From the IMG/VR virus record IMGVR_UViG_2744054854_000003, positions 1-24,011 of that record: a stretch of DNA of 24,011 nt; one strand, 5' to 3'. A program made the translations under genes and the position numbers. How positions within the stretch are numbered: position 1 is the first letter of the stretch; every line of letters begins with the position of its first letter. The notes beneath the pieces were generated by a model. The model saw only the letters and a list, made by a program, of their open reading frames with translations, searched no databases and was not told where the DNA came from. This document shows, one piece after another, positions 1 to 24,011 of the stretch. Source of the DNA: a virus. Its lineage: Duplodnaviria > Heunggongvirae > Uroviricota > Caudoviricetes.

Positions 1-97
1 TGCTGCTCAGCTAAACAACAGACCGAGAAAGACACTGAAGTTCAAAACACCGAAAGAGATAATTGAAAGGGGTGTTGCATTGACAGATTGAATCTAC

Positions 98-433
98 AGT
101 AGCCTTTTTTAATATTTCATTTTCCATTTCAATACGTTGTAGCTTTTTCCTGAGCTCACGGATTTCAATTTGTTCCGGGGTAATGGGGGAGGCTTTTGGT
201 GTTTTTCCCTGCCGCTCATCACGTAATTGTTTCACCCATCGCGTCATTGTGGAAAGGCCGACATCCATAGCGCTGGCTGCATCTGCCACGGTGTAATTCT
301 GGTCAACGACCAGTTGAGCGGATTCGCGTTTAAACTCTGCGCTGAAATTTCTTTTTTTCATTATGGCACCTGTGTTGTTCTGAGGTGAGCATATCACCTC
401 TGTTCAGGTGGCCAAATTCAGTAAACCACTTCA
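98..433 (-). mobile_element. IS3-family (IS911-like) left-end fragment with the 5' part of orfA
   Basis: Minus-strand ORF reads [29 protein letters not shown]...EILKKAT, which I recognise as an IS911/IS3-group OrfA N-terminus. A terminal TGAAGTGG (reverse complement of 426-433) resembles an IS3-family inverted-repeat end. Protein similarity stops abruptly after KKAT near position 98, so the element is truncated. Confidence 0.6.
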
Positions 434-5876: not shown

Positions 5877-8800
5877 CTATATTTTTCCGCCTACGCCTTT
5901 AAACTTCTCAATAAACGAGACGATTTTCTGGAAAACTGCCTGTTTTTTCGTTTTATATTGCGGATTCAACGGACTAAGTTTTGGTAATGTTTCGTTTAAT
6001 TCTGTGCCATTTTCGGTGGCGTATTCGCGTTTTAAAGACGTGCGAATATAGCGTTTTGCTGCATCTTCATTGAGATTTTCTTCTTTTATCAATGCTTCTG
6101 CTTCACGTTGCTGTTCGCGTTGAGCAAACGTAAAGAATGCCTCAATGATACTGGCTTTGTCTGGTAAATCATCCAGGTTCGTTTGCTGAATAAAATCGAC
6201 CACCAGGCCCTCTTTCGCCCGGTTCCCCAGGCTTGAACGAATTAAGCGTTTGACCTCTTCGATCATTTCGCCCTTGCCTTTATTTTGTCTGTTGTGTTCG
6301 AAAATCAGTCCAAGGATATAATCCAGGTTTATTTCCTGAGACTTCAGCAAATCGACCTCAAAAACCACGTCATCCCAGTCAGTGGTTGATTTTTCTTTTT
6401 TATCAGCTTCTTTCTCGCGGCGCTGCCAGTCGCGAATATCGTTATAGGCAGAACGATAATCCTGAATCTTGCGATCAGCAGGGAGACGAATTGTTTGCAA
6501 TTCAGCGAACTTTTCATCATCCACATAATGTTCTGCTTTGAATTTTTCTACCGCAACAGGATCGCTAAGATCGATTTGTTGCAGGGCTTTTAGCGTGGCA
6601 AATTCATCATAGTTTTGCAGGATGTTCTCGGCACGCAGGTATTCGCCAAACAGTTTAACGAAGTCTTTCTTCTCTTTTTCACTTTCAATACTGGTAGGGT
6701 CAGGGAACCGTTGTTCCAGTTCTGAAACTACTGTCATGAAGCCGCGTTTAGCTTCACCAGTAGCAGCATCAGTAAAGCCTTCCATATACTCTGTATAACT
6801 CTTTTCTAACACCACATTTTTGGTGTTTTTGTCACCAAACAGCGTTATGGCATCAATAGTTGAGCGTTCCAGATCCCGGAAAGTGACGATATTACCGAAG
6901 GTTTTAGTTGCATCATAAATACGGTTGGTGCGGGAAAATGCCTGCATCAGGCCGTGAAAACGCAAGTTTTTATCGACGAATAGCGTGTTCAATGTTGGAG
7001 CATCGAAGCCGGTTAAAAACATCCCCACGACAATTAGCAGATCGATATCCTGATTTTTAACCCGCTGGGCTAAATCACGATAGTAGTTCTGAAAACCGTT
7101 ACTGTCGGTGCTGAAGTTAGTTTTAAAATGGCTGTTATATTCACGAATTGCAGCGTCCAGAAACTCTTTAGCACTGCTGTCCATTGCGCTGGTATCAAAA
7201 GTTTCATCGGAAATTTCACCAATGGCATTTTGTTCTTCATTAGCGGCAAAGGAGAAGATTGTCGCAACACGCAGCGGTTTATAGGTAGCCGATTTATTAG
7301 CGGCTTCCTCTTGTAACCGTTTAAACGTCGCATAATAGGCTTTTGCAGCATCCACGCTGCTTACTGCCAACATAGCATTAAAACCTTTTGAGCCAGGGAA
7401 GGTACGGTGGGTTTTCTGGCGGAAATTATTCAGAATATATTGCGTGATTTCCTGAATACGCATGGGATGAAGAAACGCCTGCTGATTTTCAGCCGCACTT
7501 AGTTTTTTCTCGTCAGTTTCTGTCTCTAAAGACTTAAACTGTGGCCGCACATCGTTGTAGTCCACCTTGAATTTGAGCACTTTTTCGTCACGAATCGCAT
7601 CGGTAATTACATACGAATGCAATTCACGACCAAATACGCTGGCGGTTGTTTCTGAGCCTAAGGCGTTTTCCGGGAAAATAGGGGTGCCGGTAAAACCAAA
7701 CTGATAATAGCGTTTGAATTTCTTCTTCAGGTTTTTCTGCGCTTCTCCAAACTGGCTGCGGTGGCATTCATCAAATATAAACACCACTTGCTGATTATAT
7801 ACAGGCAGGTCGCTTTCTGCTTTCATCAGGTTATTGAGTTTCTGAATAGTAGTGACGATAATTTTGTTATCGTCCTTATCCAGATTTCGTTTAAGGCCTG
7901 CGGTATTTTCCGAGCCGTTGACGCTGTCTGGCGAAAAACGCTGATATTCCTTCATGGTCTGGTAATCGAGGTCTTTCCTGTCGACCACAAAGAAGACTTT
8001 ATCAATAAAGTCCAGCTCTGTTGCCAGACGCGCGGCTTTAAAGCTGGTGAGGGTTTTACCAGAACCGGTAGTGTGCCAGATATACCCACCGCTTTCCGGT
8101 TTTGACCAGTTCTTCGCTGTAAAGGAACTCTTAATTTTCCACAGAATGCGCTCGGTGGCAGCAATCTGGTACGGTCGCATCACCAGTAGTGTCTGACTAC
8201 TGTCAAACACGCTGTAGTTCACCAGAACATTCAGCAGAGTATGTTTCTGGAAAAAGGTGGCGGTAAAGTCTTTGAGGTCTTTAATCAGCGTGTTGTCTGA
8301 TTTCGCCCAGTTCATGGTGAAGTCAAAACTGTTTTTATCGCGCTTTGTCGTGTTGGCAAAATAACGGGTATCGGTGCCGTTGGAAATGACGAACAGCTGC
8401 AGATACTTAAACAGGGAATTTTCGCTGTTAAAACTCTCTTTACTGTAACGATGTATCTGGTTGAAAGCCTCACGAATCGCCACCCCGCGTTTTTTTAGTT
8501 CGATTTGCACCAGCGGTAAACCATTAACCAGGATCGTGACGTCATAACGGTTAGCATGAGAACCCGTCTGTTCAAACTGCTGGATAATCTGCACCTTATT
8601 GCGCATGAGATTCTTTTTATCTATCAAATAGATGTTCTCAAGTCGCCCGTCGTCAAAAATAAAGTCGCAGATATAGTCGATATGGATTTTACGGGTTTTA
8701 TCCAGAATACCATCGCTGGGGTTGTCCAGATACTGCTCCGTGAAGCGCCGCCACTCGCTGTCATTAAACATCACACCATTGAGGCTCTGAAGCTGTTCCC

Positions 8801-8993
8801 GAACATTGGACAGCATTGCCGACTGTGATTTTACGGAAATAAATTCATAACCCTGATTCCGCAGGTCCTGAATCAGTTCACGTTCCAGGTCCGATTCGCT
8901 CTGGTAGCTGTCGCTTGTTTGCTCAGCTTTGATGTACTTATCAAGGACGATAAAGTTATTGGATTCAGCAATGGTGTGTGTTTGATGAGTCAT
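5877..8993 (-). CDS. hsdR: Type I restriction enzyme R subunit (1038 aa)
   Basis: Walker A ([12 protein letters not shown]) and DEAD-type box ([12 protein letters not shown]) helicase motifs. The length matches EcoR124I HsdR as I recall it. Has its own upstream intergenic region of 121 bp. Confidence 0.9.
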
Positions 8994-9114
8994 AGCGCAT
9001 CCTTTGTGCCGCCTGGCAAGAGCCGGAAGGGCGTTAAGAGTGACTTCCGGCGCGTAAAAAATAGTCTATATACTGACCGGGTGTTAAGGTGGCCCGATCG
9101 GTAGCAATGGTCAA

Positions 9115-10317
9115 TTAATTACTGACAGTTTCAGGTTTCGGGAAACTGAAAAGTAAATCACGGTAGTATTCGTATTGTTTCTGGCGCAACTCGATTTCAC
9201 GCGGAAGGCCTTCGGTGATGGAGTTTGTCAGGTTGTAAAATTTATCCATCGTGGCGACGATATAAAGTTGTTCATCGTATGATGGGATAGGTATTTCAAA
9301 TGCTCTCAACGATTTTAAACCTAAGTTTTTAATAGTTGAACCTGTTTTTTGATTTTCAAAATACTGTTTTGCGTAATTGGTTTGCAGGAAATAGAAAAGA
9401 TATCTAGTGTGGAGTTCAGGTGATTTAATTTTAAAATAGGCCACAGACTTACCGAGTACGATCTTCTCATTATTGTAAAAGGAAACATTTCCAATTGTGC
9501 CATTAATTGACAGGAAAACAGTATTTATTGGGTCAAAATGAATTCCGTGTTTTTTAAACATAGAATCATTAACCTTTTTTGTGTTATCGTTAAATGATAT
9601 TTTTTGATAGCCTAAATTGTTTCCATTGATAAAGAAATAATCACCGTTGGCGTCATATTCTGGAGTACCATGCAAACCGTCTCCAATTACACATAGCTCT
9701 CCTAATTTCAGACGTTTAACATCGTGGGCACCAAAACTAAATAACCGGTCGCGATAGTAGTTGTACTGTTTTTTACGCATGTTAAGCTCAGCGGTAAGCT
9801 CAGCGGTAAGTGCAGTAAATTTGTCCAGAATCCGAACGATTTCAGACTGGATGGCAAGGGATTTTTCCGGATTATCCGGGCAGGGGATTGGTACAGGTAT
9901 CTCAATTAATTGTCCTTTAGTTAATTTTGCCCTTCCTCCCCCGGTAAGGAAGGGAAGGAAATTAACGATGCATAAATAATGATATAGAAATCTAGAATGA
10001 ACTCTTTCTTTTCCTCGTACGACATGAACATGGTTGTTTGCCCAGAATTTACCAGTTGCATATTGAATTGAATAATTTTCTAAACTAGCCGAGCCATCTT
10101 CTGCAATTAAGACATATTCACCATCGTGGGTATATCCATCCACATAGTCTTGAATGTTGTTAGCACCATAATAGGGCGTCTCGCCTGCAATGCGCAAAGA
10201 GGCTTTTACTGGCTTTCTTCCATTATTCGCTATTTCGAAGAGTGAAGTATCACCAAGATTTCTCCACTCAACTTCAACCCCATCCAGCAATTTTTCCAGA
10301 TAACTTAACTCGCTCAT
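9115..10317 (-). CDS. hsdS: Type I R-M specificity subunit (400 aa), type IC-like
   Basis: Central conserved region with a TAELTAEL repeat, and the duplicated YYRD(R/L)LFSF motif at mid-protein and C-terminus, as in EcoR124-family HsdS. Its start overlaps the hsdM stop. Confidence 0.9.
9784..9816 (-). repeat. 12-bp tandem repeat (2 copies plus a degenerate third) encoding TAEL-TAEL in hsdS
   Basis: AAGCTCAGCGGT occurs twice (9784-9795 and 9796-9807), followed by AAGTGCAGT. The minus-strand translation is [11 protein letters not shown]. Confidence 0.85.
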
Positions 10318-11876
10318 TTCTGCACCTCGCAGCCTTCAATTTCAGCCACAATCGCATCAATATCTTTACGCAACAGGTCGATTTTGCTGACCGTGGTTTT
10401 CAGCTCTGCGTTCAACTCAGCAATATCGATAATTTCGCGGTTATCTTTCGCTTCCACATAGCTGCTCACCGACAGGTTATAGTCATTAGCGACAACGGTC
10501 TCAAACGCGACAGATTTCGCCAGATGAGCAACATCTTCCTTGCTGGCAAATACCTGCATAATCTGTTCGATATGGGCATCGGTCAGGGTATTGTTGTTAG
10601 TTTCTTTTTTAAACAGCTCGCTGGCATCAATAAACTGAACTTTGGTATCCGTTTTATGTTTAGACAGCACCAGAATGTTTACGGCAATAGTGGTGCCAAA
10701 GAACAGATTCGGTGCCAGTGAAATCACGGTTTCGACATAGTTATTGTCGACCAGATACTGACGGATTTTCTGCTCTGCGCCGCCACGGTAAAAAATACCC
10801 GGGAAGCAGACAATCGCAGCACGACCTTTGGCAGAAAGATAGTTCAGCGCATGTAGTACAAAGGCGAAGTCAGCTTTTGATTTGGGGGCCAGAACGCCAG
10901 CAGGGGCAAAACGTTCATCGTTAATCAGCGTCGGGTCATCACTGCCAATCCATTTCACCGAATATGGCGGGTTAGAAACGATGGCATCAAACGGTTTTTC
11001 ATCTCTGAAGTGCGGCTCAGTCAGCGTATTGCCCAGCTTGATATCAAACTTGTCGTAGTTGATGTTGTGCAAAAACATGTTCATACGCGCCAGGTTATAG
11101 GTCGTATGGTTGATCTCCTGACCAAAAAAGCCTTCTTCGATGATATGGTCATCAAACTGCTTTTTCGCCTGTAACAACAGCGAACCGGAACCTGCGGCTG
11201 GGTCGTAGATTTTGTTAACGTGGGTCTGCCCGTGCATAGCCAGTTGTGCAATCAGCTTAGAGACATGCTGCGGTGTAAAAAACTCGCCGCCTGACTTACC
11301 AGCATTCGCCGCATAGTTAGAAATCAGGAACTCATAGGCATCGCCGAACAGGTCAATCTGATGTTCGTTGAAGTCACCAAGTTTTAACCCTTCAACCCCT
11401 TTCAGAACCGCAGCCAGGCGGGCATTTTTATCCTTAACGGTGTTACCCAGGCGGTTACTGGTGGTATCGAAATCAGCAAACAAACCTTTGATGTCAGCTT
11501 CTGAAGGGTAACCGTAAGCAGAACTTTCGATAGCAACGAAGATACTGTTTAAATCTGCATTCAGTCTGTCATTGGTATTTGCTTTCGCAGCTACGTTGCA
11601 GAAAAGCTGACTTGGGTAGATGAAGTAGCCTTTAGTTTTGATGGCATCGTCTTTAATGTCATCAGTAATTACGCTGTCATCCAGTTTCGCATAACAGATA
11701 CTGTCATCACCGGCTTCAATATAGCTGGAAAAATTTTCGCTGATAAAACGGTAGAAAAGTGCGCCCAGAACGTATTGCTTAAAATCCCATCCATCGACCG
11801 AACCCCTGACATCGTTAGCAATTTGCCAGATTTGACGATGAAGCTCTGCACGTTGTTGAATACTTGTCATTTTCAT
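10314..11876 (-). CDS. hsdM: Type I R-M N6-adenine DNA methyltransferase subunit (520 aa)
   Basis: NPPY motif (SNPPYSVKW), AdoMet-binding glycine-rich motif ([10 protein letters not shown]), and a typical HsdM N-terminus. The length matches EcoR124I HsdM as recalled. Confidence 0.9.
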
Positions 11877-17554: not shown

Positions 17555-17776
17555 ATGGCTACTATCCCTACCCCAACTCATCCTGAATTTATCTGGCGCT
17601 TTTACTCCTGCCAGAAACGTCACTATCACTTCGTTATCGCAACAACAGAAGATGAGGCACGTTCTCAGCTTCCGGATGCTCCCTGCATTTTCTCCGCACG
17701 CTTTTCTACTGACTCGCGCAATTCTCTCAGTTACTGGTGCCTCCCTGTTAACGCTTCTGTTCAGGAGGGGCTATGA
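17555..17776 (+). CDS. Small protein (74 aa) translationally coupled to the antirepressor gene (icd-like position)
   Basis: Strong SD AAGGAGG 8 nt upstream of ATG 17555. Its stop overlaps the ATG at 17773 (ATGA). An in-frame upstream ATG at 17418 is possible. Confidence 0.5.
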   Translation: MATIPTPTHPEFIWRFYSCQKRHYHFVIATTEDEARSQLPDAPCIFSARFSTDSRNSLSYWCLPVNASVQEGL

Positions 17777-18885
17777 GAACGTCATTAGTCACCCGTGAAG
17801 AGATGATCGAGGCAATTGAACCGCACACAATCTGTATCAGCACCAGGGATATTCCCGGTGTTATAGCCAATTACTTCATGATCACCAAACAACTCTACAG
17901 GAGAAAGGACAAGAACGCGGTTCACCGTATCCTGCTGTCTGATATCCGCGAATACCTGCTCGAACAGGGGCATCTGAATTACGCAACCGTCGCAGCCGAA
18001 ACACGCAAGGAGGCACACAGAATGAAAGCTACTAACGTTAAATCAGAAAAAGTTCATGCACCTTCAGTTCAGGAATCAGAGCTGGTGGTTGTTCAAAATC
18101 AGCCTGATGAAATTCCCGTTCTGGAATGGCAGGGAGTACGCGTCGTAACGACCGAAACTCTTGCTAAGGGGTATGGAACCGAAACTAATAACATCAAAGT
18201 TAACTATACGCGTAATGCTGATCGCTTTGAGGAAGGTAAACATTACTTTCTACTAACTGGTTCAAAATTAAGAGAATTGAAGGACAAGGTTACTCAAAGT
18301 AACTTAGTCGCACCGCGAGCAAAGCACCTCACTCTCTGGACGGAGCGTGGCGCAGCCCGCCACGCTAAAATGCTCGAAACCGATCAGGCATGGGCATTCT
18401 TTGAAAAACTGGAAGACAGCTACTTCCGGCAAAAAGAACAGCAACCGGTTGCAATCCCCCAGACGCTTCCAGAAGCTCTGCGCCTGGCTGCCGAGTTGGC
18501 TGAACAAAAGCAGCTACTGGAACAGAAGGCCCACCAGCTAAATCAACAACTGGTGGCCGCAGCCCCCAAGGTCGATTTTGCCGACCGGGTATCAGTAGCT
18601 AAAGGGATCCTGATTGGGAATTTTGCAAAGGTTGTTGGACTTAAGCAAAACGCGCTGTTTGCCTGGTTACGGGAGAACGGCATCCTGATTGCGTCCGGCG
18701 GACGTAAAAATGTGCCGTTCCAGCAGTACATCACCGCGGGGTATTTCACGGTGAAAGAAGTGGTGCTGGATGATGAAGATGGCTACCAGATACGGTTGAC
18801 GCCTCAATTAACGGGTAAAGGCCAGCAGTGGTTAACTCGCAAGCTACTTGATGCTGGCTTGTTAAAACCGGTGGCGGCTGAATAA
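17773..18885 (+). CDS. ant: Antirepressor-like protein (ORF6N-like and ANT/KilAC-like domains), nested in-frame starts giving 370 aa and 287 aa
   Basis: Middle region RNADRFEEGKHYFLL resembles ORF6N. C-terminal LFAWLRENGILIASGG...YITAGYFTVKE resembles the phage antirepressor ANT domain. A second in-frame ATG at 18022 has a strong SD (AAGGAGG). The symbol is tentative. Confidence 0.65.
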   Translation: MRTSLVTREEMIEAIEPHTICISTRDIPGVIANYFMITKQLYRRKDKNAVHRILLSDIREYLLEQGHLNYATVAAETRKEAHRMKATNVKSEKVHAPSVQESELVVVQNQPDEIPVLEWQGVRVVTTETLAKGYGTETNNIKVNYTRNADRFEEGKHYFLLTGSKLRELKDKVTQSNLVAPRAKHLTLWTERGAARHAKMLETDQAWAFFEKLEDSYFRQKEQQPVAIPQTLPEALRLAAELAEQKQLLEQKAHQLNQQLVAAAPKVDFADRVSVAKGILIGNFAKVVGLKQNALFAWLRENGILIASGGRKNVPFQQYITAGYFTVKEVVLDDEDGYQIRLTPQLTGKGQQWLTRKLLDAGLLKPVAAE

Positions 18886-20922: not shown

Positions 20923-21954
20923 ATGTCCAATTTACTGACCGTACACCAAAATTTGCCTGCATTGCCGGTCGATGCAACGAGTGATGAGGTTCGCAAGAAC
21001 CTGATGGATATGTTCAGGGATCGCCAGGCGTTTTCTGAGCATACCTGGAAAATGCTTCTGTCCGTTTGCCGGTCATGGGCGGCATGGTGCAAGTTGAATA
21101 ACCGGAAATGGTTTCCCGCAGAACCTGAAGATGTTCGCGATTATCTTCTATATCTTCAGGCGCGCGGTCTGGCAGTGAAAACTATCCAGCAACATTTGGG
21201 CCAGCTAAATATGCTTCATCGTCGGTCCGGGCTGCCACGACCAAGTGACAGCAATGCTGTTTCACTGGTCATCCGACGGATCCGAAAAGAAAACGTTGAT
21301 GCCGGTGAGCGTGCAAAACAGGCGCTGGCGTTCGAACGCACTGATTTCGACCAGGTTCGTTCACTCATGGAAAATAGCGATCGCTGCCAGGATATACGTA
21401 ATCTGGCATTTCTGGGGATTGCTTATAACACCCTGTTACGTATAGCCGAAATTTCTAGGATCAGAGTTAAAGATATCTCACGTACTGACGGTGGGAGAAT
21501 GTTAATCCATATTGGCAGAACGAAAACGCTGGTTAGCACCGCTGGTGTAGAGAAGGCACTTAGTCTGGGGGTAACTAAACTGGTTGAGCGATGGATTTCT
21601 GTCTCTGGTGTGGCTGATGATCCGAATAACTACTTGTTTTGCCGTGTCAGAAAAAATGGTGTTGCCGCGCCATCTGCCACCAGCCAGCTATCAACTCGCG
21701 CCCTGGAAGGGATTTTTGAAGCAACTCACCGATTGATTTACGGGGCTAAGGATGACTCTGGCCAGAGGTACCTGGCCTGGTCTGGACACAGTGCCCGTGT
21801 CGGAGCCGCACGAGATATGGCCCGCGCCGGAGTTTCACTACCGGAGATCATGCAAGCTGGTGGCTGGACCAACGTAAATATTGTCATGAACTATATCCGT
21901 AACCTGGATAGTGAAACAGGGGCAATGGTGCGCCTGCTGGAAGATGGCGATTAG
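20923..21954 (+). CDS. cre: Cre site-specific tyrosine recombinase (343 aa)
   Basis: MSNLLTVHQNLPALPVDATSDEVRKNLMDMFRDRQAFSEHTWK... is essentially the canonical Cre sequence, 343 aa, about 420 bp downstream of loxP. Confidence 0.97.
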   Translation: MSNLLTVHQNLPALPVDATSDEVRKNLMDMFRDRQAFSEHTWKMLLSVCRSWAAWCKLNNRKWFPAEPEDVRDYLLYLQARGLAVKTIQQHLGQLNMLHRRSGLPRPSDSNAVSLVIRRIRKENVDAGERAKQALAFERTDFDQVRSLMENSDRCQDIRNLAFLGIAYNTLLRIAEISRIRVKDISRTDGGRMLIHIGRTKTLVSTAGVEKALSLGVTKLVERWISVSGVADDPNNYLFCRVRKNGVAAPSATSQLSTRALEGIFEATHRLIYGAKDDSGQRYLAWSGHSARVGAARDMARAGVSLPEIMQAGGWTNVNIVMNYIRNLDSETGAMVRLLEDGD

Positions 21955-21971
21955 CCATTAACGCGTAAATG

Positions 21972-21988
21972 ATTGCTCTAATTCTTTG
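21972..21988 (+). promoter_or_regulatory. C1 operator-like site downstream of cre
   Basis: ATTGCTCTAATTCTTTG; the first 11 positions match the consensus exactly and the 3' half is divergent. Confidence 0.45.
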
Positions 21989-22004
21989 ATATTTATGGTG
22001 ACAT

Positions 22005-22316
22005 GTGAGAAAGGATTTCAACATCGACGGAAAATATGTAGTGCTGTCTGTAAGCACTAATATTCAGTCGCCAGCCGTCATTGTCACTGTAAAGCTGAGC
22101 GATAGAATGCCTGATATTGACTCAATATCCGTTGCGTTCCCTGTCAAAAGTATGCGTAGTGCTGAACATTTCGTGATGAATGCCACCGAGAAAGAAGCAC
22201 GGCGCGGTTTTGCCAAAGTGATGGCCGAGTTTGGCGAATTTTTGGGGCACGTTGACAAAGCCCTTTCAATCAGTTCAGCAAGGTCCAAAGCGTTAACAGC
22301 TTCCATGCTGAAATAA
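22005..22316 (+). CDS. Hypothetical protein (103 aa) in the cra position after cre
   Basis: GTG start at 22005, with an alternative ATG at 22107. Followed by a stem AGCCTGGC / GCCAGGCT at 22320-22340. No domain recognised. Confidence 0.4.
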   Translation: MRKDFNIDGKYVVLSVSTNIQSPAVIVTVKLSDRMPDIDSISVAFPVKSMRSAEHFVMNATEKEARRGFAKVMAEFGEFLGHVDKALSISSARSKALTASMLK

Positions 22317-22442
22317 AAAAAGCCTGGCAAGGAGCCAGGCTGCACAAAAGAGCGGGTTTGTATTCCGCATCCAATCAATCAAGAAGGAGTATAGCACACA
22401 GGTACTGAAATGAAAAAATGTGATTCGCGATAAATAACTTTA

Positions 22443-22472
22443 ATTGCTCTAATTGATTGCTATAATTGAGCC
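22443..22472 (+). promoter_or_regulatory. Two overlapping C1 operator matches with an embedded TATAAT (Op2a/b-like, upstream of ref)
   Basis: ATTGCTCTAATTGATTG (22443-22459) and ATTGCTATAATTGAGCC (22456-22472); TATAAT at 22461-22466. Confidence 0.6.
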
Positions 22473-22526
22473 GCAGTTTTTGTCAACTACGAAGACGTTG
22501 CCATTACTTCACTCCTTGACATCATT

Positions 22527-22552
22527 GGCGGCCATTAGGCCGCCTTTTTTTT
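22527..22552 (+). terminator. Strong intrinsic terminator 5 nt upstream of the ref ATG
   Basis: 7-bp GC stem GGCGGCC / GGCCGCC with loop ATTA, followed by 8 T residues (22545-22552). Confidence 0.7.
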
Positions 22553-22557
22553 GCCAT

Positions 22558-23114
22558 ATGAAAACAATCGAACAAAAACTTGAACAGCGCCGCGAGTGGC
22601 AGAAGGCAGCCAGAGAACGAGCGATCGGCAACGGGAAAAGTTGGCTGACCCCGCCTGGCGAGAATCGCAATATCAGAAAATGCGGGATTCTATCGACCGC
22701 CGTATCGCTAAACAGAAAGAGCGCCCACCAGCCAGCAAAACGCGGAAAAGTGCGGTAAAAATAAAATCTCGTGGCTTGAAGGGGCGAACACCGACGGCGG
22801 AGGAACGGACCATCGCCAATGCTCTTGGCACTCTCCCCTGCATTGCCTGCTACATGCATGGAGTAATATCTGAAGAGGTGTCTCTGCACCATATCTCCGG
22901 TCGTACCGCGCCGGGTTGTCACAAAAAGCAATTGCCCCTTTGTAGATGGCACCACTAGCATGCAGCACCGGCTGAAGTAAGAGAAAAATACCCCTGGCTG
23001 GTCCCCGTTCATGCCGATGGTGTGGTTGGAGGCAAGAAAGAATTCACCTTGCTGAACAAGTCAGAGATGGAATTGCTGGCTGACGCCTATGAGATGGCAA
23101 ACATCATGCACTAA
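22558..23114 (+). pseudogene. ref: ref-like HNH endonuclease gene, apparently disrupted (frame change plus in-frame TAG)
   Basis: N-terminus MKTIEQKLEQRREWQKAARERA... (frame of 22558) ends at 22758. The HNH-like segment CIACYMHGV...SLHHISGRTAPGCHKKQLPLCRWHH is in another frame (22596-22958). Its TAG at 22956-22958 is followed in frame by 51 protein-like codons (HAAPAEVREKYPWLVPVHADG...ANIMH) to a TAA at 23112-23114. Confidence 0.5.
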
Positions 23115-23303
23115 TAAATATATTATTTTTAATCTGAAATAATTGACAACTGACAAGTGACTTCAGTCAGAATCATCACATGCCCGGTACGGATGGATCC
23201 CTTTTCAAATATTCCATGGACGGCACAGTCTGAGTACCGGGCGCTACCTTCAGTTGTATTGCTAAGCCGCCGCTGGTGGCTTTTCTTTTTTATAGGGGGC
23301 GCT

Positions 23304-23933
23304 ATGGATAAGAAAATATGCGTTGTTTCGATGAGCGTCGGTAAACCGGCGTCAATGACTGCTGCATGGATCAACAACGAGCTGATAATGGCTGAGCGGA
23401 CCAGCTACCCTGAACGCCGCCGCGATATGGAACTCCAGCTGCTGCGCGAATTGCGAGAAAAAGAGGAAAAGGGTTTTATCGTGCTGGTGGAAGAGGAAAA
23501 CAGCTTTATTACCGGTCGAGTTGGCCAGCGTGTAAGGTTGCGCGATCCCTTCATGAACGGCAGGCCGGTACTAATTGAAGCAATGCAGATTTACAAGGAG
23601 TTGGAACGCCAGAAAGCGATCAAGTTACCGCGCAAGGAATCCGGCAAATACATCCTCCACCAAAGCATCTTCGATTCCGAACACGATAAAAAAGGCGATG
23701 AGTTTTTCAACATCAACTGGATCGAAATAACGACAGAGCATGTTCTGACGTTGTTATGCTGCTTCGCAACAGAATACAACAACGTGGTAAGCGCAGACTA
23801 CATCAGGACAATGACAGACACCGTTACTAAACAAGACAACGAATATTCACCATATGAGCCATTTGTAAATATGATAAAAGCATTTTATCGGATGGAGCTC
23901 ACTAAAGTTCCTCTGACCTGCCCCCACGATTAG
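23304..23933 (+). CDS. Hypothetical protein (210 aa) in the mat position after ref
   Basis: ATG 23304 with AGGGGG about 5 nt upstream, inside track ORF 23157-23933. No domain recognised; calling it mat rests on P1 gene order only. Confidence 0.45.
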   Translation: MDKKICVVSMSVGKPASMTAAWINNELIMAERTSYPERRRDMELQLLRELREKEEKGFIVLVEEENSFITGRVGQRVRLRDPFMNGRPVLIEAMQIYKELERQKAIKLPRKESGKYILHQSIFDSEHDKKGDEFFNINWIEITTEHVLTLLCCFATEYNNVVSADYIRTMTDTVTKQDNEYSPYEPFVNMIKAFYRMELTKVPLTCPHD

Positions 23934-24011
23934 ATACAACACTCAGTTAGTAACGTCGGAATCTTCATTCTCAGAATGACCCTTTCTCCAGCCCGCTGCA
24001 AATTCAGACGG

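Follow-up and report, generated by a model that had tools for sequence, protein, structure and literature searches.

A ref pseudogene with two lesions on a P1-like phage-plasmid

Positions 22558–23114 (plus strand) of the 24-kb window, that is, the whole 24,011-nt stretch of viral DNA analysed here, are the ref gene of a P1-like phage-plasmid, located between cre/c8 and mat. We are highly confident that this ref was recently inactivated by two independent mutations in an otherwise common intact allele. A 4-bp deletion breaks the reading frame at codon 24, and an amber stop stands in place of codon 135. Full-length Ref cannot be made from this gene and, judging from the published work on Ref truncations and on the H153A variant, Ref function would be lost. 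The double-lesion allele is inherited and real; it is already annotated in RefSeq.

Ref, a RecA-dependent HNH nuclease whose name stands for "recombination enhancement function", consists of a disordered, basic N-terminal DNA-binding region of 76 residues and a 110-residue HNH core with two Zn2+ ions (PMC3973344; PMC4330346). His153 coordinates the active-site Zn2+, and the H153A enzyme neither makes double-strand breaks nor degrades circular single-stranded DNA (PMC3973344; PMC4330346). The N-terminally truncated variants dN21 and dN47 are active in vitro (PMC4330346), and ref is dispensable for thermally induced lysis by P1 and for lysogeny (PMC4713147).

Identity of the locus

The genes at the locus are arranged in the order cre (20923–21954), c8 (22005–22316), ref and mat (from 23193), and this order, together with a C1 operator, is that of the family. 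The window also contains pacA/pacB and the c1 repressor gene. We aligned 22540–23130 with the ref genes of P1 (AF234172; locus L001, 1609–2169) and RCS47 and found the three sequences to be colinear save for the two lesions, with nucleotide identities over the region of 95% to P1 and 98% to RCS47. The former CDS of 186 codons now extends over 557 nt. The RecA_dep_nuc profile (PF16786) matched on both sides of the TAG codon, with profile positions 1–55 before it (E 1.4e-25, 89.9 bits) and 57–102 after it (E 2.5e-16, 60.1 bits). Both halves scored above the gathering cut-off of 26.9 bits, and the domain is split by the stop. The translation of the repaired gene matched P1 Ref (PDB 3PLW) over residues 1–186 with an E value of 2e-118.

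The two lesions

A preliminary description of this DNA had held that a Ref of about 186 residues is split over two frames that join somewhere within 22580–22758. The split was confirmed, and alignment to P1 and RCS47 ref narrowed the join to 22624–22628. The ATG at 22558–22560 opens a frame that reads MKTIEQKLEQRREWQKAARERAI, which by translation and alignment corresponds to Ref residues 1–23 (22558–22626, plus strand), and then runs out of frame. The ORF opened by this ATG (22558–22758, plus strand) encodes 66 residues, 23 of Ref and 43 out of frame, and is closed by TAA at 22756–22758. Its product had no Pfam match and has been called a hypothetical protein on 11–13 public contigs. Ref residues 25–134 are encoded in the -1 frame (22626–22955, plus strand), in register with position 22596, and the same frame carries residues 136–186 after the stop. 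The segment before the stop contains what is left of the basic N-terminal region and, from the HNH core, the first half with C96, C99, H112, H113, C122, C130, H133, and H134.

The frame is broken by a 4-bp deletion (junction at 22624–22628, plus strand; columns 87–90 of the alignment to P1 and RCS47 ref) within GCGATCGCTCGG, where ATCGCTCGG became ATCGG. The position of the junction is ambiguous across this interval because of a TCG direct repeat. The deletion takes out codon 24 and one further base, placing all later codons in the -1 frame, and is the only gap in the alignment. It probably arose by replication slippage between the short TCG direct repeats, a short repeat being the signature of such an event, and ribosomes starting at the ref ATG would from then on enter the shifted frame and terminate after 66 residues.

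The second lesion is a premature amber stop at 22956–22958 (plus strand), which the HNH frame meets directly after LPLCRWHH, as had been described. A single C-to-T change of CAG to TAG had been suggested as its source, and this was exactly right: the alignment placed the change at 22956, in the codon for Gln135, and the TAG is the sole nonsense difference from P1 and RCS47 ref. By this transition, Gln135 became the amber stop. The protein-like coding sequence that had been noticed beyond the stop, up to 23114, consists of 51 Ref codons (136–186) followed by TAA at 23112–23114 (stranded part, 22959–23114, plus strand), which give the second PF16786 match. It had also been considered that P1 Ref might align colinearly with one frame ending at 22958; the alignment was run, and this is not the case. 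The amber stop cuts off the C-terminal 52 residues. Among them is the active-site His153, the codon of which (23010–23012) is located downstream of the stop. All remaining differences from P1 and RCS47 ref are ordinary allelic variation. Among the three options originally offered for the inactivated ref homologue, namely pseudogene, sequencing error, and recoding, the first is the one borne out.

Coding capacity of the disrupted gene

The frameshift alone might be leaky, because dN21 and dN47 are active in vitro (PMC4330346), through restart at GTG 22596, TTG 22641, or ATG 22680. Any product of such a restart would still end at His134 and be 52 residues short at its C-terminus, so that His153 and approximately the latter half of the Pfam domain would be missing; it is this early end that makes the amber stop the decisive lesion. 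We considered whether the locus might nevertheless be partly alive through residual or altered function of a restart product (approximately Ref 25 or 42 to 134) or of the 66-residue peptide, either of which might bind DNA, induce the SOS response, or interfere with RecA. Although DNA binding resides in the basic N-terminal region, and expressing this region adds to SOS induction (PMC4713147), an N-terminal-only Ref construct was largely insoluble (PMC4330346). Likewise, the three in-frame start codons exist and gene callers predict a 92-aa M42–H134 product on 3 contigs, but no recognisable Shine-Dalgarno sequence is present in the 20 nt upstream of any of the three. The in vitro activity of dN21 and dN47 (PMC4330346) would favour such a function, whereas the fragment in question would have no His153 and only about half of the 110-residue globular domain, and its proper folding is doubtful. 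The 66-residue peptide has no family match, and the 134-aa product expected from the amber mutation alone was absent from a 15-billion-protein collection, which argues for no function. Residual function is accordingly very improbable, and complete inactivation by the two lesions remains our preferred explanation.

Recoding, in which a programmed -1 frameshift near 22600–22750 and amber suppression or readthrough at 22956 would together yield full-length Ref, is extremely unlikely. The required shift is indeed -1 and the two frames overlap over 22584–22755, but no X XXY YYZ heptamer occurs in the register of the ref ATG within this overlap, and the sole heptamer, GGGAAAA, stands at 22633 in another register. 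At codon 135, a glutamine-inserting amber suppressor of the supE type would restore the wild-type residue; however, amber suppressors are rare in natural isolates, a search of the 24-kb window with ARAGORN found no tRNA genes, and two low-efficiency events would be needed in series. A 60-mer across the deletion junction was found exactly in 17 of the 554 E. coli records covering the site, whereas the other 537 lack the junction and align with a 4-base gap, with or without further mismatches. The split frame is thus a rare, derived state rather than a conserved recoding arrangement, and repair of the two lesions gives a protein that is common in uninterrupted form. The suppression or recoding offered in the preliminary description was therefore discarded in favour of inactivation. 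Least credible of all is an artefact, in which the gene would be intact in the real molecule and both lesions would be base-calling or consensus errors: long-read assemblies often contain small erroneous indels, but this deletion is 4 bp long and lies outside a homopolymer, the second lesion is a substitution, and the identical allele recurs in independent assemblies, namely the 17 complete E. coli records (including two of AW1.7 and one of NCTC11129), and in short ENA and JGI metagenome contigs and an IMG/VR contig.

Distribution of the double-lesion allele

The 751-bp region 22450–23200 was 100% identical in 14 complete E. coli genome records and 99.9% identical in three more, and the counts in PLSDB were similar. 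The 17 E. coli records with the junction 60-mer, and no others, gave exact matches to a 60-mer across the amber codon. The megablast search with the amber 60-mer matched 409 records, compared with 554 for the junction query, and this denominator for the amber site is an undercount because P1-type alleles have three mismatches in the 60-mer and leave no 28-nt seed. Both lesions were also present in one IMG/VR contig and in one ENA and one JGI metagenome contig, and the two were found together in every fetched locus covering both sites. The carriers come from several countries and hosts, and include a sheep O15:H12 isolate, AW1.7 (two separate records), the CX/CT series, TOK-001, NCTC11129, a Swiss stool isolate, and Czech and other human isolates. 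Compared as a whole, the 24-kb window was 98.1% identical to its best carrier over 94% of its length, and no complete E. coli record matched it exactly.

In RefSeq, PGAP has labelled the allele "Ref family protein; frameshifted; internal stop" on pAW1.7_1 (J7886_RS25315), in NCTC11129 (EL113_RS23450), on p2-S1-ZIM-01-A, and on the 1332KP plasmid; the labelled pseudogenes include V6S34_RS26440 and ACX19U_RS24980. Our search of the literature for work on ref pseudogenes of P1-like phage-plasmids found no paper. We looked for single-lesion intermediates, which would order the two events, among the 60-mers, the protein collection, and the fetched loci and found none. Salmonella phage SJ1 (OQ595196) was examined as a deletion-only case and rejected; its record is made up of concatenated CDS calls with no intergenic DNA, and the amber site is absent from it.

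Age and recombination of the allele

The repaired protein of the window was an exact match to an intact Ref of E. coli P1-like plasmids (P0123; UniRef A0A2K4P2D3), the T86, T93 variant, which was found on at least 1000 contigs. At the nucleotide level, the intact ref of NZ_CP040069 (strain A1_181) shows two other differences from the CDS in the window. Given this exact match to a widespread intact allele, the inactivation is recent, and no further amino-acid changes have accumulated in ref since then. The youth of the event also explains why the stranded 3' sequence still looks coding.

Several plasmids share the ref and mat pseudogene haplotype at 100% identity over almost 3 kb. In p2-S1-ZIM-01-A (NZ_CP145673), a comparison with window positions 20951–23862 gave 68 mismatches to the left of about 22437 and one to the right, the latter being a SNP at 22854. 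This distribution of mismatches indicates a recombination breakpoint just upstream of ref in NZ_CP145673, with diverged cre/c8 beside the same ref-mat haplotype. Since the same ref allele stands beside diverged cre/c8, it is old enough to have recombined into another background.

Loss of ref across P1-like plasmids

From the 662 E. coli records that contain ref-like DNA, we drew 60 by a systematic "spread" scheme, so that the following numbers are an estimate and no census. Less than 80% of the ref CDS was kept in 13 records, seven of which retain only nt 236–561 of ref. One record had the double-lesion allele of the window, and another, the EC11 plasmid, had a different 1-bp frameshift and an annotated pseudogene. 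By this estimate, ref is visibly disrupted in roughly a quarter of the sampled ref-bearing records (about 15/60). Among individual cases, NC_017653 (L019), one of these seven, has a 5'-truncated ref (nt 236–561), annotated as "missing N-terminus", which adjoins GlxA/MBL-fold cargo genes, and pCRST032_1 has a ref with a C-terminal truncation. The protein collection contained several frameshifted or fused Ref forms (among P0005–P0037), including a c8::ref fusion.

One entry of that collection, P0013, is very abundant (929 member sequences, ENA). It is a 197-aa protein in which P1-type Ref, with an upstream-extended start, ends with Trp131 (the W of LPLCRW) and is joined to unrelated sequence. 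It may be a fragment of a laboratory vector with cre-ref DNA rather than a natural allele.

Deletion of ref removes the ciprofloxacin hypersensitivity of P1 lysogens and raises lysogenisation 40-fold (PMC4713147). Because ref is dispensable and its deletion has these effects, neutral decay and mild positive selection are both plausible. We tentatively raise the possibility, which we regard as rather unlikely, that the loss is selected and not neutral, P1-like elements that live mainly as plasmids in antibiotic-exposed E. coli perhaps gaining from it. Selected loss, if true, would explain the occurrence of a double-null allele in at least two recombinant backgrounds and in hosts from several countries, as well as the independent disruption of ref in about a quarter of the sampled records.

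Regulatory DNA around ref

The control elements of ref were located by transfer of the AF234172 annotation through alignment. The C1 operator Oref, ATTGCTCTAATTGATTG (22443–22459, plus strand), and the -10 hexamer of P2ref, TATAAT (22461–22466, plus strand), are kept, and the P1ref hexamers TTGCCA (22498–22503) and CATCAT (22520–22525), both on the plus strand, are identical to those of P1. In contrast to the unchanged Oref and -10 hexamer, the P2ref -35 region (22437/22438) has a 5-bp deletion and substitutions relative to P1 and RCS47. The H-NS motif CGATAAA, taken from the literature (PMC4713147), was located in the window sequence at 22428–22434. Carriers of the double-lesion allele differ from one another at positions 22430 and 22436.

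At the other end of the gene, the C1 operator Omat (23105–23122) is identical to that of P1 and overlaps the ref stop codon. This stretch of the dead ref still serves the regulation of mat.

A terminator-like hairpin, GGCGGCC-ATTA-GGCCGCC followed by eight T (22527–22552), separates the P1ref promoter from the ref start codon. P1 and RCS47 have the identical hairpin, which is absent from the features annotated there in AF234172; no obvious Shine-Dalgarno sequence is found 3' of it.

Other features of the window

The similarity to P1-like plasmids ends at 23913, and the last 98 bases (23914–24011) match the end of an IS3-like element, ISSen4. Through the IS insertion, the mat gene (23193–23933) has lost roughly a dozen codons from its end and now closes with a short tail of foreign sequence. 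At the left end, an IS transposase orfA (11–397, minus strand, PF01527) abuts a truncated gene for a VRR-NUC/PDDEXK nuclease (385–747); several E. coli plasmids, among them CT02 with the same ref allele, have this junction at 100% identity. With an IS on the 1–747 side and ISSen4 at 23914–24011, the P1-like segment is thus IS-flanked on both sides.

A complete type I restriction-modification system (5877–11876, minus strand) is encoded beside phd/doc, with HsdR of 1038 aa, HsdS of 400 aa, and HsdM of 520 aa. The type III EcoPI res/mod genes, which follow mat in P1, are absent from related plasmids with the ref allele of the window; in these, an EAL-domain gene and IS5 come after mat. An antirepressor gene (ORF6N + KilAC; 17773–18885) is located between pacB and c1 and is intact in the window, while its counterpart in the 1332KP plasmid (L007, 17852–18966), which has the same ref allele, is annotated as 'frameshifted; internal stop'. 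In related plasmids, the antirepressor gene is preceded by icd.

Expected consequences of the loss

The Ref-dependent effects known for P1, namely enhanced ciprofloxacin killing of lysogens, inhibition of lysogenisation, and stimulation of RecA-dependent recombination, should be absent from the element in the window. Gene callers will report spurious "hypothetical proteins" of 66 and 92 aa at the locus. The locus itself is an ordinary pseudogene and matters little; the repeated independent disruption of ref in P1-like phage-plasmids may be worth testing for adaptive gene loss by population genetics.

Comparison with known ref genes

A functional member of the Ref family (PF16786) is encoded by one unbroken ORF of about 186 codons, and the window has no such ORF. 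Nor is His153 encoded in one polypeptide with the rest of the HNH core. The basic N-terminal DNA-binding region has been described as having to be contiguous with the core (PMC4330346), whereas in the window the frameshift parts residues 1–23 from 25–76, and the N-terminal region (residues 1–76) is not contiguous with the nuclease core. The ref of the window is consequently a pseudogene of the family rather than a functional member.

The locus, the promoters, and the C1 operator are the same as those of ref in P1 and RCS47, and the repaired protein matches 3PLW from end to end. In contrast to P1 and RCS47, the frame in the window is broken at codon 24 and interrupted by amber at codon 135, and a product of 186 aa is impossible. 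The records with P0123 and NZ_CP040069 likewise lack the deletion and the amber stop, both of which the window carries. The ref pseudogenes in RefSeq are 100% identical to window positions 22450–23200 (V6S34, 99.9%) and have the same two lesions; their ref locus equals that of the window, while the plasmid backbones differ. In the other ref pseudogenes of P1-like plasmids, the same gene is also non-functional, but the lesions differ, pointing to separate events.
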